From NCBI GenBank assembly GCA_964016885.1, contig OZ024740.1, positions 201,376,001-201,440,000 on the forward strand: a DNA stretch of 64,000 nt, given 5' to 3'. Positions within the stretch are counted from its first letter, which is position 1. Every line of letters starts with the position of its first letter. Source of the DNA: Eledone cirrhosa (lineage: Eukaryota). Positions 1 to 46,619 of this stretch are shown piece after piece. The notes under the pieces are model-generated. The model did not search any database, was not told the origin of the DNA, and worked only from the letters and a program-made list of their open reading frames with translations. A program made the position numbers and the translations under genes.

Positions 1-2577
1 GATAGAATGTTCTGCGGTATTCTTGCCAGCTCTCTACACTCTGAGGTCAAATTGCATCGACTTCAATTTTGCCTTTCACATTTTCGTGGTCAATAAATTA
101 AGCATCAGTACTGGGATTGATTCTTCCTCCCTTTTTTTGTGAAAGAAAGTGTCTGTATTAAGATAATACAAGCAGGGCTGGATTTAATGGGGAAGGGGCA
201 AATGGGGCAACTGCACCGGCCCCCTGCAGTGGAGGTCCCACCAGCGACGGCCGTAGCAATTTATTTGTGCCCTCAGCTAGGCTTTATAATTTTAGGATGG
301 TTAGAATTTTTTAATGCAATATCTATGTATAACTTTTCAATACCAATTACTTGCATCTCGCTAACTTCCATATGTAAAATTGGGCGGGGGGGGGGGGAGC
401 TCTGTGTATTCTAAATTGTTTCTGTCTAAGGGAGCTCCCCGAACCTGAAGTGCTTCCCCACACCCGGTCTAAATCCAACCTTGCATGCAAGGGATAGGCT
501 CCAGGTGTAAATTCCACAATAGTGCCCGACGACTCCATTAAATGTTAAGGGACTAGGATGGATGGAATGCATTTGGTAAATAAGAAATAGGTAACTTCAT
601 TGTACATGTCACTGGTCTCACTTGAATCAAAATGGCGTCCAAAATAATAATCAATCAAAACGGCATCCTATATTTAACGCAGATGATCGGAATTAGTATG
701 GAGAATTATGATAAAGGAGTAATGTTGAAATGAGAAATAGTGAAAACATATTTTATGTTCTAATATTAAATAATTTGTTTTGGTGTGGAACTTCGTTTCA
801 AGATGGCATAAAATAATGAAGAACTTAGAGAGACTGATGCCGGCTATAGGAATTTATTTATTGATGTGGCTCACTTATTAATATGCGAACTGCACGGTCA
901 TAGTTTAAAGGAAGAAACTTATACATTAGAGTTGGTCAGTAATTTAGATTTCGTGCAGTGATGGACTTTGTAAGCATTCACGCTTCGTTGCAATTCAATT
1001 AGTTTCATCCATTGGCAATACTGCGAAGAATTCTTAGAATTCATGATTAATGGAATTAAATTAATGATGTCTATATAAGTAATCAATTATGAATCTATAT
1101 ATGTTTAGGTCGACCCGAACTTGAGTGTGTGACTATAACTGTATGTATGTGTGTGTATATATATATATATATATATATATATATATATATATATATATAT
1201 ATGTGTGTGTGTGTGTGTGTATGTGTGTATGTGTGTGAATAAATATGTGTGTGTGTGTGTGTGTGTGTGTGTGTGTGTGTGTGTGTGTGTGTGTGTGTGT
1301 GCAAGGTGACACAATAGCAGAGCTGCTAGTACATCAGTTAGTATGTTTATGGTATTTATTCTTATTCTCTACAATCTGACTACAAACCCCACCGAAGTCA
1401 ACTTCGTTTCTAGATCGATAAATACCAGACCAGTACTGGGGTAGATTCTCTCTCTCTCTCTCTCTCTCTCTCTCTCTCTCTCTCTCTCTCTCTCTCTCTC
1501 TCTCTCTCTCTCTCTCTCTCTCTCTCTCACTCTCTCTCTCTCTTACTGTTTCTGTCTCACTGGAGGCAATTGGCTCTGTTCAGACATGGACTGGAGAGTG
1601 ATGGGCTCCCTGTGTCGGGATAGCCCCATTTCCCTTCTAAAACTCCATCAGGATTTCGGGGCCTATTATTAGATGTGCGCATGTGGTTATAAGTGTGTGT
1701 ATAACTGTGTGCATGAGTGTGTGTATGAGTGTGTGTGTGTGAGTGTGTTTTTGTGTGCGTGCGTGTGTGTGTGTGAGAGAGAGAGAGAGAGAGAGAGAGA
1801 GAGAGAGAGAGAGAGAGAGAGAGAGAGAGAGAGAGAGAGAGAGAGCATGTGCACGTAATATGAAGTGTTTCGGATTACTGCACTGTGAGTTAAATTCGCA
1901 CTGAAGTCACTTTTGCCTTTCTTCTATCGAGATCGATAAACGAATCTACCAGTTGAAGGAGGTAAATTGGCAGAGTTGCTAGAGTATCTGACGATATATA
2001 TATATATATATATATATGTGTGTGTGTGTGTGTGTGTGTGTGTGTGTGTGTGTGTGTGTGTGTGTGTGTGTGTGTGTGTGTGTGTGTGTGTGTGTGTGTG
2101 TGTGTGTGTGAATTTTCAGTGTGATTCTCAGCGTGAAGATTAGCTATAAACAGTCGAATACTATATGTATAGTAAAAAGACGGGTTAAGATATAACAACA
2201 TTTTGAACGGAGAGCGAGATGGAAAGGAAGAAAGAGAGCATGGGATGAAAAATGAGAGCGGTATAATGTTTACACACATATATATAGTAAAAGAGTAAAG
2301 AATTACCTTAAACGATAATATCTTGTTAAGTTATATATATATATATATATATATATATATATATATATATATATAGAGAGAGAGAGAGAGAGAGAGAGAG
2401 AGAGAGAGAGAGAGAGAGAGAGAGAAACACACAGATACATGCGGACACATACATATACATGAATATATCCACACATATCCCTGAGTTAGTGGTACCAACC
2501 TCAACCGATGTTGCTCTATGAATAACTGGGACAAACGAATCCGAATGGATTAGACTGATTCAGTATCAGAGCTATAA

Positions 2578-2981
2578 AGTACATTATGAAGAGAGAAGAA
2601 ACATTAGATATAATTAGTAATAAGATATATCATACCTAAGCTGCTTCTATAGTCCCCGACTACGTAGTTTCGTGGCATATTATGCAAAAACACTACATCA
2701 TAGAGATATAGAGTTTTTGTGAGGCTCTACCGACTTATCAAGGAGATACCTCATTAAGGATTTCAAAACACGTCTGCAATGCGTGAGATAGAATCTCGAA
2801 AGGGCGGAGGGAGAGTCAATCACGTGATACAGCGGTCAAGAAACAGAGCTAAGCCCCTTATAACCCTGAAAAAAATACCACGGAGGTGGAGGGGGTATTC
2901 ATATCATACCTAGAAGCAGCTAGGTATGATATATCTTATTACTAATTATATCTAATGTTTCTTCTCTCTTCATAATGTACT
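2578..2981. repeat. Fold-back island with about 72-bp inverted arms
   Basis: 2578-2649 inverted to 2910-2981; encloses HHR-like motif; right end abuts (TA)n. Confidence 0.85.
2653..2706 (-). ncRNA. Degenerate hammerhead ribozyme
   Basis: - strand TCTCT-ATGATGTA-GTG..CAC-GAAACTACGTAGTC-GGGGA; palindromic stem III, mutated core. Confidence 0.55.
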
Positions 2982-3303
2982 ATATATATATATATATATA
3001 TATATATATATATATATATATATATATATATATATATATATATAAGAGAGTATTGAAGTTTGCTTGAAGCATTGTGGAATAATAAATAAATATCTTTAAG
3101 TCGTTTGGAAGCCTCGACAATGCAAATGGGTAAATCTCTGGGTAACAAGATCCGGTGGTGGAGAGAGAGATGTAAGTGGGTGTACGTTGAGATGCGTGGT
3201 GTGTACAGATGTGTAAATGTGTAGAAGAAAGAAGGGAAGAGTATAAAGGATAAAATAAAAATAACAACACAAGAGAGAGTTACCTTGGGAGAGATTTAAT
3301 AGT

Positions 3304-3339
3304 CCCTATATATTTCGGATTCACATCCATCAACTGGGG
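3304..3339 (-). ncRNA. Degenerate minimal HHR in PLE1 inverted pLTR
   Basis: Mirror of 6796-6830. Confidence 0.55.
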
Positions 3340-3692
3340 TTTTTTTCCTAGGTAAAGGTTGTCTGTCGGACAGGTGCGAAACGCGTCCTCCGCTGTTTGT
3401 TGTTTTGAATATCTGAGGTATTCGGCAGAGCGCGCATGCGCGTGAAATGGGGTCGGTCGGGCAGAGGTCAGCGGCCGAATGAGGGAGTGGGTGGCGCTAG
3501 CTGTCAGTCCATTCTCTGCCTGTTTTTTAAATGTTACTGTGTGTGTGCGTGTGTTGTTGTCTCGCTTGAGTGTGTGTGTGTGTGCGTGTGTAGTTGCCTT
3601 GTTCCTCTGTATTGGCAGTGTAGTATGTTCGTATGGTGGAATGCTACTGTGTGTGTGTGCGTGTGTTGTGTGTTGCTACATCGTTTGTTAAC

Positions 3693-44388: not shown

Positions 44389-44592
44389 CCCTTTAGCATT
44401 TAAACCGGCCATATCCGGCCAGAATTCTCTCACCTCTTACTGTTCAAACCAGTCATAACTGGATGCTCATACCTATAATAAGGTATTGTTCTCAAAATAA
44501 GCGACATCAAAATCTCGTAGATTCAAATGTAAGGTAAAGCCTTTACTGTGAAAATACAATAGTAAATATAGAGCAATGTGAATGCTAAAGGG
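44389..44592. mobile_element. piggyBac-like MITE
   Basis: TTAA|CCCTTTAGCATT...AATGCTAAAGGG|TTAA. Confidence 0.85.
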
Positions 44593-45364
44593 TTAAATAA
44601 AAATATTGTAAAAGTTGTTACAATGTTTTAATTTTCGTCCGGCTATTTCATATATCTTTCATTGAAAGAATTATTTTAATGTCATTATCAACATCAGTAA
44701 TTTACGACCACAACTACCTTCCCTTCCCTGCTAAGTTGTAGACACCATTGCCATCATCAGCACCACTCCCAACACCACCGTAACCACTGCGATTGCCACA
44801 GACAACAACAACACCATCACCGTCACTACCAACAACAACACCATTACCACCTCGGAGTCCTTAACACCACCAACATCACAACATCCACTGCCGCCATCAC
44901 CGCCACACCAGCCCATCGACTCTCACCACCACTGTCACCGCCACCAACCTCACCACCAGCGACAACAACGTCCCCACAATACCAAGTCTTGGCCACTACC
45001 ACACCCACCACCACCACCATCACCAAAACTATCATCACCAACGTTACAACCATCACTCCATAACTCCAAGATGGAGTAAACAAAATAAGATCAAAAAAGA
45101 AGAGAAGGGGCGGAGGAAAACAAATAGTCATTGAGGAGGTCACATAATGTGAACTTTGACGATTTACTAATAACTAATATAATAAAGTTGAAATGAAAAT
45201 CGTAGAGTGCGTGTGTTTTTATTAGCAATATGATATCCTTAAATATATTAATATTTGTCTCAACACACGATTTCACATCAAGAATCTTGCAAAGTATATA
45301 TATATAGATATAGATATACGATATTAATAAATGGAAACTATATTTATAAAACCATATTTATTTC

Positions 45365-45420
45365 ATTATATATATTTCAAGGATACCAAGTTACATTATG
45401 GTATGCCTTCATCAGACAAA
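45365..45420 (-). ncRNA. HHR, same pLTR family as 11143-11198
   Basis: - strand CTGATGA-AGGC-ATACCA..TGGTAT-CCTT-GAAATATATA; flanks 45320-45445 resemble 11120-11237. Confidence 0.72.
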
Positions 45421-46619
45421 ATACAATATATAACAGTTTTATAAATAGACATTGACGTACCCCTTTAAAAATTGACCGTTGCTTTTGGAGGATGGCCTCC
45501 AAAAGCAACGGTCAATTTTTTTTTTACACTTTTCAACATGAATATTTATTTTTGCTGAATCTCAACTATTGCTTATTCTTTCCACCAAGTCTTTTTTTTC
45601 ATCGTTCACAAAAAAATTGAACTCGCCATATTTGTTATACTAAGTGAAGCCTTTCTTTCTGTTTCATCATATTGTCACGTTCACATACACATTTTTCAAA
45701 ATGGCTGCCAACGACCTGTTGCACTATCATTTTCGCGCCATTTTCTCGCGCAATAGAAATTTTTTTTTTTTCTCAACTTAACTTTGTTTCGGCACATGTA
45801 GGCAGCACACATCTCGACTCACTGAGATACCACACGCCATGGATAATGTTTCTCGCCAAGGATTCTCCAGCCTTAAGCTATATTCTCCTATTTGCCGGTT
45901 TAAAAATTTACCACGTAAATTTGTCGTTGAAACTGCGCATTTATTCAGAATGCTTATTTCTTTGGTCGCTGGCCTCTTGACCCTTCCAGGTCAACGCATT
46001 CTCAACATCGACCATCAACTTCGGCTGTTATTTCTAGCACTTTGCGCAACTCATTTTTTCTGGGAAAATTTTTACTGTGAATTTAAACAGCATCGAATAC
46101 GCTCACTCCGCGAGACAACAACATCAACAGCAACACAGCTTCATCAACAACCAAAACCAGCAGAACAAACCAGAGAATTTATTTTTGCAGCACTCTTCCT
46201 GTGAGAAAATCCCCTCGGAGGTTGGAAATTTCACGTTATACTACAAACCAGAAACTACCTGCATTCATTCTCTGGAACACACTTTCTTTCCTGCTGTCAT
46301 GTGATTGCACACCTGTGAACTGTATTTTGAACATTTGAACTTTGACCTCTTCTTTTACTTTGATTACATTGTATCTTTGAGTGACGGATAGATAGATGTC
46401 CAGTCGTTCTCTGGCCAAGAGCGGTTGGCTACCTTGATATCTATCATTGATTTTTGCATGGATATATTTTGCTGTTTTCCTTTTATTGCAAACATTATTT
46501 TTTTTTCGTAATTTTCATGCCTGTTACATGCTCGCCATCTTACTCCATACATGTTTCATTCGATTTTTATGTTTTAAAAATCTGGCGGGAGATAATGTAG
46601 CAAGAGTTGCCTCCCTTGT

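Follow-up and report, generated by a model that had tools for sequence, protein, structure and literature searches.

Hammerhead motifs and Penelope-like elements in the window

The window analyzed here is a 64,000-nt stretch of the Eledone cirrhosa genome (assembly GCA_964016885.1, contig OZ024740.1, positions 201,376,001 to 201,440,000), in which hammerhead ribozyme (HHR) motifs recur near (TA)n tracts. A preliminary description made from the sequence alone had interpreted these motifs as an archipelago of islands, all of them non-autonomous retroelements defined by their ribozymes and mobilized in trans by Penelope-like elements (PLEs). We find that this interpretation does not hold for 13 of the 17 families to which the motifs belong, because these are linked to PLE open reading frames (ORFs), but that it probably does describe three families that lack ORFs. 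In both kinds, PLE-type and retrozyme-type HHRs are tied to (TA)n, as had been proposed.

When parsed by hand, all 22 coordinates listed previously were found to carry a type I HHR-like motif. Eighteen are intact, with helix I of at least 3 bp in addition to helices II and III (2653, 7447, 11143, 21265, 21502, 22226, 22788, 22939, 24321, 24457, 25448, 27906, 30737, 31877, 39092, 40425, 40767, and 45365), and the base of helix II is mismatched in several of these. The other four are damaged: the 5' arm of helix I was lost at the insertion junction at 7163, helix I is down to 2 bp at 30146, and the motifs at 3304 and 6796 have the core CAGUUGA, in which A6 is lost. The label "degenerate" is thus apt for 3304 and 6796, but not for 2653, 24321, 24457, and 40767, which are intact and carry the already known U3-A8 core variant. 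A reading of 24321 and 24457 as half ribozymes was dropped once this variant was recognized. A U4C core is present at 30737, 31877, and 39092. Two HHRs beyond the original list, 11511(-) and 41704(-), bring the total to 24.

The assignment of the 22 motifs to 17 families exceeds the minimum of ten proposed earlier, although some families are related. Four pairs of motifs represent the two arms of one inverted insertion each. Most motifs had been placed in noncoding islands, but those at 3304/6796, 11143, 30146, and 39092 adjoin PLE ORFs within the window.

Two features of the motifs recur. Whole families (25448, 40425, 21502, 11511, and 22939) have a U-U or C-A mismatch in place of G10.1-C11.1 at the base of helix II; a U-U pair at this position has been noted for one axolotl HHR (PMC7229834). 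Despite being just 77% alike, two subfamilies share the U4C core (CCGAAGA; 30738-30784, 31878-31924, and 39089-39143), and the DNA examined contains 10 occurrences of it.

Four PLE coding regions lie within the window: PLE1, PLE2, PLE3 (endonuclease only), and PLE4. The HHRs at 3304/6796, 11143, 30146, and 39092 are located at the 3' ends of these elements. The PLEs, and the HHRs assigned to PLE families, are the following.

3085-7049 (+): PLE1, with a reverse transcriptase (RT) ORF at 3955-6598 (PF00078; GxKF and DKG motifs), GIY-YIG in an inverted 5' arm at 3696-4253, and inverted pseudo-long terminal repeats (pseudo-LTRs) at 3085-3645 and 6487-7049
3304-3339 (-): degenerate HHR in the inverted arm of PLE1, core CAGUUGA
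6795-6830 (+): degenerate HHR in the 3' pseudo-LTR of PLE1, core CAGUUGA
7160-7265 (+): HHR of the Hydra-clade PLE family F7163, cut at the core, 5' arm of helix I missing
7450-7484 (+): minimal HHR at the 3' end of PLE family F7453 (with RT plus GIY-YIG), in an island at 7339-7644
7663-11232 (+): PLE2, Hydra clade (RWR, DKT, CxCX5C), with an inverted tail at 7663-7794
11147-11197 (+): HHR at the 3' end of PLE2
21502-21552 (-): HHR of the Hydra PLE family F40431, in an island at 21487-21995
22225-22295 (+): HHR of the Hydra PLE family F22233, in a solo island at 22169-22326 that begins at the family's 5' limit
22727-23298: head-to-head inverted pair of the Hydra PLE family F22945, with HHRs at 22784-22938 (-) and 22938-23086 (+) and a tail to 23298
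25448-25486 (+): HHR of the PLE family F25453 (DKG type), in a solo island at 25413-25597 that begins at the family's 5' limit
29040-30390: PLE3, with an endonuclease ORF at 29384-29998 (-) in one arm and an HHR with weak helix I at 30147-30186 (+) in the other
30544-31969: inverted pair of family F31877, with Hydra-type 3' untranslated region (UTR) and U4C HHRs at 30738-30784 (-) and 31878-31924 (+)
35820-39178 (+): PLE4, Hydra clade, with GIY-YIG (PF01541) just below the cut-off and CxCX5C
40425-40475 (+): HHR of family F40431, in an island at 39982-40552
40767-40862 (+): U3-A8 HHR of the Hydra PLE family F40767, in an island at 40659-40876
45359-45423 (-): HHR of the young Hydra PLE family F45415

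Family copies were the best 20 to 30 loci per query, chosen from 60 to 3291 candidates for covering the query; F24321, F31877, F11511, and F30150 were judged from incidental copies at other loci and from one 1-kb stretch. Longer copies reach RT or GIY-YIG ORFs in F7453, F7163, F25453, F22233, F22945 (where the longer copy is a 7.2-kb tandem), F45415, F40767, F40431, and F6796. Copies of F30150 sit ~200 nt after an endonuclease, and this family and F40767 are linked mainly via that domain. F31877 is linked only through an 84% relative that follows a PLE4-like endonuclease. Because the ORFs are either in the window or reached by longer genomic copies, 17 of the 22 motifs (13 of the 17 families) are 3' pseudo-LTR ends of RT/GIY-YIG PLEs.

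Most of these PLEs are of the Hydra clade, as assigned by motif and not by tree. At least one of the motifs DKT, RWK-like, and CxCX5C is present in PLE2, PLE4, F22233, F22945, F7163, F40767, F45415, and F40431, whereas PLE1, F7453, and F25453 carry DKG instead. The partial tandem of pseudo-LTRs, the inverted 5' copy, and the tail that mark endonuclease-bearing (EN+) PLE families are all observed. PLE2 has a decayed ORF from 7871 to about 10000, followed by a long 3' UTR. The 2-kb 3' UTR of PLE4 ends in the U4C-core HHR at 39089-39143, and a protein search with its endonuclease gave two unnamed matches. At 98-100% identity (1779 candidates), PLE1 is a young element. Nevertheless, in 20 of 20 copies its HHR core is CAGUUGA or another variant, with helices II and III kept. 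PLE1 is therefore a spreading PLE whose ribozyme, to judge by its core, is probably dead.

Several islands without an HHR (22417-22494, 26603-26841, 26922-27412, 11763-11938, and 30544-30700) resemble PLE ends or tails that are cut 3' of the ribozyme or inverted. In the family of the island at 22417, a minimal HHR is present in the longer copies.

The motifs are far more frequent than chance predicts, as the preliminary description had anticipated. A strict descriptor matched the window 5 times, versus a mean of 0.07 in 100 shuffles, and a relaxed descriptor, which recovers only 10 of the 24 window motifs, matched 10 times versus a mean of 0.37 (maximum 2) in 60 shuffles. The covariance-model scan that had been suggested gave no such support, in that Rfam produced no match to the window HHRs at gathering score. 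The motif at 27906 matched Hammerhead_HH9 in a 331-nt local scan (E = 0.008), with 20.8 bits against a cut-off of 52, and the scan by E-value was dominated by microsatellite matches to microRNA models.

Covariation was likewise expected, and is present. In 12 related motifs, hand-picked from the window and from random stretches and originally found by a pairing descriptor, 95.8% of cells are paired and 12 of 16 pairs changed on both sides; none of 500 shuffles was as high, and pairing falls to 32-61% in slid controls. In 21 clusters chosen by core anchors alone, helix II is 81% paired versus 57% when shuffled, with a conserved mismatch at position 4. The core pair is C3-G8 in 181 occurrences, U3-A8 in 21, and mixed in 5.

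The association with (TA)n also stands. Within the window, 9 of 10 relaxed-descriptor matches lie within 300 nt of (TA)6+, versus 28% of background positions. The genome was sampled by taking 60 10-kb stretches from fixed positions along large contigs (600 kb of the 3.0-Gb genome). These stretches hold 60 relaxed-descriptor motifs, versus 0 to 4 in five shuffles, and 51 of the 60 are within 300 nt of (TA)6+, compared with 26% of background positions. A PLE ORF fragment is present in 20 of the 60 stretches, and TA tracts of at least 12 bp make up 5.0% of the sample and 4.6% of the window. The density of motifs is 1.0 per 10 kb in the sample versus 1.6 in the window. Thus, the window is ordinary for its genome and not a special locus, and the notion of a local archipelago is not sustained. 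Extrapolation gives ~290,000 HHRs in the genome, or roughly 190,000 to 400,000 by the spread between stretches. By comparison, the largest HHR count in the literature compared is 126,247 in axolotl.

Retrozyme units, insertion footprint, and probable mobilization

Three families lack ORFs. In these, k-mer walks close into circles of 685-689 nt (F27911), 486-488 nt (F21270), and 598 nt (F2653), whose longest ATG ORF encodes 52-67 aa. The other 14 families yielded no circular unit, 13 being ORF-linked and F24321 showing no closure in 26 segments. The window contains one insertion of each of the three.

2426-2970 (-): retrozyme insertion F2653 (598-nt unit), 0.83 unit with tail, plus an inverted arm at 2911-2970
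2653-2746 (-): HHR of F2653, U3-A8 core, H17 at 2658
21146-21421 (+): retrozyme insertion F21270 (486-nt unit), 0.59 unit, TA on both sides
21265-21351 (+): HHR of F21270, stable helix III, H17 at 21346, lowest-energy fold a hammerhead
27465-28286 (+): retrozyme insertion F27911 (685-nt unit), 1.03 units, inverted arm at the 5' end, palindrome at 27465-27708
27906-27984 (+): HHR of F27911, 3-bp helix III, H17 at 27979, the Rfam HH9 match below cut-off

Thirty loci were compared per family, the window's own included, with three insertions counted from both arms. More than one unit is present in 20 of 30 copies of F27911, 11 of 30 of F21270, and 18 of 30 of F2653 (49 of 90 in all), the longest copies spanning 1.45, 2.53, and 1.53 units, respectively. 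Two HHR cores in one run occur in 0, 2, and 6 of the 30 copies, and no long arrays are found among the best copies. On this sequence organization, the motifs at 2653, 21265, and 27906 lie in ORF-less head-to-tail units that are classed as non-LTR retrozymes.

Between the end sites, the 140-nt segment of F27911 is 69% identical to that of F21270 (z = 19). The head-to-tail joint of F27911 is also present in contigs of run X1, which may derive from the source sample. Parts of the retrozyme families (21146-21421 and 27590-28290) are found at 85-98% identity in runs X4 and X5; because these come from two other organisms, the families are not private to this genome. All three runs consist of contigs whose kind is unstated and which are silent on expression. 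No listed RNA data set contains 21146-21421.

The retrozyme copies carry a consistent footprint. Two fixed sites account for the ends of 86 of the 90 copies, and most of these ends are at (TA)n. Counted from the cleavage site, the two sites are located at +308 and +421 in F27911, at +81 and +190-196 in F21270, and at +77-84 and +238-252 in F2653. An inverted arm abuts the 5' end in 50 copies, and this partner ends at the other site in 42 of the 50; in none of them do both arms use the same site. The sequence after the 3' end is TA in 116 of 140 segments. Two 3' end sites are also observed in 7 of 9 linear PLE families examined. Two internal RT start sites bounding the tail have been demonstrated in vitro for a lizard PLE (PMC11167929), and the Hydra clade is described as inserting into (TA)n, a preference also described for Neptune and Naiad PLEs (PMC8557442).

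The (TA)n association might instead be reversed or incidental, either because TA runs arise from PLE ends or because the two accumulate together in neutral AT-rich DNA. TA tracts do occupy a twentieth of the sampled DNA, and the RT start sites hold 1-7 nt of TA-like sequence within the element. However, the TA run begins at a fixed 3' junction in most segments, members of different families lie nested within shared tracts, no full HHR occurs in the TA-free stretch at 12.4-20.6 kb, and the preference has the precedents just cited. We regard both possibilities as very improbable.

It is highly probable that the islands are separate (TA)n insertions of many PLE families, with the three retrozymes likely copied in trans by the same RT/GIY-YIG enzyme. 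Each PLE insertion would leave its HHR-bearing end in a TA tract. In the mechanism that we envision, the GIY-YIG domains of a dimeric enzyme would nick both strands of the tract. Reverse transcription would then begin at two internal positions of the RNA, ~20-420 nt downstream of the HHR and each used by one strand. Head-to-head joining of the two cDNAs would give a palindromic island with the tail on one arm. Short islands would result from ordinary 5' truncation or from run-off at the RNA 5' end, where transcription likely starts, within the pseudo-LTR and a short way upstream of the HHR. The ORF-less units are likely copied from a circle that the HHR has cut and that was then religated, or else from an uncut tandem transcript. 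The three retrozyme units, as reconstructed from sequence, are likely RNA circles copied by a Penelope enzyme.

In four families, the 5' ends have a sharp limit a short way upstream of the HHR. For F25453, 35 of 51 ends fall within -77 to -66 relative to the cleavage site, with none from -78 to -324. The corresponding intervals are -80 to -69 for F24321 (17 of 26 ends, in copies found incidentally), -151 to -140 for F22945 (12 of 32), and -128 to -117 for F22233 (32 of 69). Head-to-head pairs of all four families meet at or inside the limit. Because Penelope transcription starts inside the pseudo-LTR, at an internal promoter (PMC2377424), run-off of RT at the RNA 5' end is the simplest reading of these limits, and on the present analysis a likely one. 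Structural stalls or short non-autonomous subfamilies are rival explanations. In families with a sharp limit, short copies may themselves re-transpose in trans.

The limits bear also on the possibility that every island is non-autonomous and moved in trans or, in a softer form, that solo copies consisting of pseudo-LTR and tail re-transpose by means of an internal promoter, as short interspersed elements (SINEs) do. Three families are indeed ORF-less, short units that begin at a fixed 5' limit make up most copies of F24321, F25453, and F22233, none of 26 F24321 segments is linked to an ORF, and most of the best F40431 matches begin at one (TG)n boundary. Nevertheless, ORF-linked copies exist for 13 of the 17 families, and run-off from the first pseudo-LTR of a normal mRNA gives fixed limits without a separate element. 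An exclusively non-autonomous community is thus improbable. The (TG)n run of F40431 lies at a fixed point 495 nt upstream of the cleavage site (39874-39992 and 21985-22072 in the window), where the ORF-linked copy has only a short TG motif.

A rival that we judge unlikely, although less so than the two above, concerns the template of the ORF-less units. These might move by way of transcripts that are made from genomic partial tandems and remain uncut, with the HHR as a passenger and without circular RNA. Their copies cross the cleavage site seamlessly and mostly measure less than 1.5 units, HHR mutants had no effect on insertion in vitro (PMC11167929), and only one of nine Xenopus retrozyme dimers was cleaved (bioRxiv 10.64898/2026.07.22.740005). 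However, all three circle HHRs keep a helix III that can form in the monomer, and two have the hammerhead as their lowest-energy fold. The loop III palindrome of F27911 is kept through double changes, and older subfamilies (74-83% identity) also exceed one unit. Moreover, 14 of 140 circle 5' ends are found no more than 10 nt from the cleavage site, versus 5.1 expected (9 of 46 in F21270), although a structural stall of RT at the fold would look alike. A stronger peak seen at first proved to be an artefact of the reference edge, and the count given is the corrected one. In linear PLE families, the ends show no peak at the cleavage site (5 of 72 in -10 to +9).

Other observations weigh against insertion by PLE enzymes from circular templates and against run-off. 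Only 8 of 90 circle copies have two cores, and the longest has 2.5 units, unlike classic retrozyme arrays. No autonomous partner sharing the tail of the circles was found among seven families compared; because the best 20 to 30 of 60 to 3291 candidates were taken, rare ORF-linked parents could be missed. No 5' limit is apparent in F7453, F6796, F30150, or F40767, and the apparent limits of F40431 (-38), F40767 (-42), and F22233 (-111) resemble subfamily divergence from a single reference copy. Folding z-scores are weak, ranging from -3.0 to +0.7. Finally, cleavage may be dispensable, because nearly every copy derives from cDNA that continues across the site and a broken core has not kept PLE1 from spreading, and the HHR mutants did not block insertion in the in vitro work cited above.

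Unassigned sites and other repeats

Three sites have no assigned parent element.

24187-24558: head-to-head inverted pair of family F24321, with U3-A8 HHRs at 24323-24358 (-) and 24458-24493 (+); no ORF link and no closed circle among 26 segments
11476-11516 (-): HHR beyond the original list
41664-41710 (-): decayed HHR beyond the original list

A query with 11297-11534 matched an unrelated element and not the HHR family. A 33-bp minisatellite (41774-42100) is located just upstream of the HHR at 41704(-), and others reside at 48952-49617 (48 bp) and 61453-62055 (20 bp).

A SINE-like repeat of 190-250 bp is present in ~20 copies, some in tandem (10462-10657, 12902-13090, 14662-15286, 16141-16533, 20499-20700, 42432-42651, and 47422-47634). 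Another repeat family with a TA-adjacent end (39213-39813 and 26053-26418) has no Rfam ribozyme match and presumably resembles an RTE 5' region. A hepatitis delta virus (HDV)-like ribozyme considered near 39213 was supported neither by Rfam nor by hand pairing. The region 51951-52868 (+) encodes a 305-aa ORF with a PHD finger and an RTE-like C-terminal RT region, and is a fragment of a long interspersed element. A 143-aa acidic, low-complexity frame at 62964-63392 (-) has no Pfam match and may be a host exon.

Relation to known systems and biological meaning

The motifs have much in common with the HHRs described in PLE pseudo-LTRs by Cervera and De la Peña in 2014 (PMC4209133), including the palindromic helix III, the U3-A8 variant, and the presence of many families per genome. 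In that study also, most motifs are single and ascribed to truncated PLEs, and opposite-strand pairs lie 100-700 bp apart. In contrast, G10.1-C11.1 is here often A-U or mismatched, position 4 of helix II is a conserved C-C mismatch in one group, and the U4C core occurs. Extrapolation gives ~3×10^5 HHRs, versus 2,000-9,000 in that study, which used a different descriptor.

The coding elements resemble the Hydra and Neptune EN+ PLEs of Craig et al. 2021 (PMC8557442) in their C-terminal GIY-YIG, the HHR in the pseudo-LTR, and (TA)n targets. They also share the DKT, RWK-like, and CxCX5C motifs (Hydra) or GxKF and DKG, as well as 5' truncation, the inverted 5' copy, and a tail. However, tails are mostly 50-180 nt here versus 30-40 there, units reach 7.2 kb (F22945) versus <3 kb, and several families have sharp 5' limits, the clade being assigned here by motif only. 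The non-autonomous Chlamys elements of the same paper, such as MRC1, are likewise ORF-less PLE derivatives with head-to-tail copies, but most are devoid of HHRs, their targets are (CA)n or (C)n, and their 3' ends resemble those of autonomous partners.

The three ORF-less families correspond to animal non-LTR retrozymes (Cervera and de la Peña 2020, PMC7229834; Li et al. 2026, 10.64898/2026.07.22.740005) in that the head-to-tail unit lacks ORFs, contains a single type I HHR, is low in GC, shows ~61% self-pairing as a circle, and coexists with PLEs as the proposed mobilizers. Published animal retrozymes form arrays, whereas the 486-685-nt units found here are dispersed as insertions of 0.5-1.5 units, with two longer. 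In addition, they show every part of the PLE footprint (two start sites, an inverted arm, and a TA target), unlike the published retrozymes, whose link to PLEs was argued from co-occurrence and pseudo-LTR homology in the same two papers. No pseudo-LTR parent of the three circle families was found among the copies compared.

The footprint is closest to that of the Poseidon PAc element in vitro (Frangieh et al. 2024, PMC11167929), for which two internal RT start sites bound the tail, the target is AT-rich, both strands are nicked and extended, and uncut RNA is usable. That work concerned only an autonomous element, whereas here ORF-less units follow the pattern and the two arms never share a site.

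HHRs in pseudo-LTRs, single motifs from truncated PLEs, opposite-strand pairs, the U3-A8 variant, TA targeting, and retrozymes as probable PLE dependants are already in print. The additions made here are the scale and the footprint that ties retrozymes to PLE enzymes. In the main texts of the open-licence literature (supplements, which may hold octopus PLE consensus sequences, were excluded), we found neither octopus HHRs or retrozymes described nor any mention of the 5' limits or of retrozymes with the two-site footprint. The word "ribozyme" does not occur in the accessible part of an O. vulgaris repeat paper (PMC13282606).

Taken jointly, the data suggest a broader reading that we offer tentatively, as possible but somewhat doubtful in its entirety. 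Dimers of the Penelope RT/endonuclease would retrotranspose animal retrozyme circles from two fixed internal sites of one RNA, one per nicked (TA)n strand, while promoter-bearing solo pseudo-LTR copies would spread as SINEs do. The genome would thereby have come to hold ~300,000 HHRs, and its TA landscape would have been shaped in the process.

These findings bear on which enzyme moves animal retrozymes and on what role the HHR has for Penelope elements. Dozens of young copies of three ORF-less families here display the Penelope-specific two-site footprint, and exact RNA start sites and a (TA)n target can now be named for trans-mobilization in vitro. That most HHRs of animal genomes are single could be explained simply by the sharp 5' limits. 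At ~100 HHRs per Mb, this genome would also be a rich source of natural core variants such as U3-A8 and U4C.

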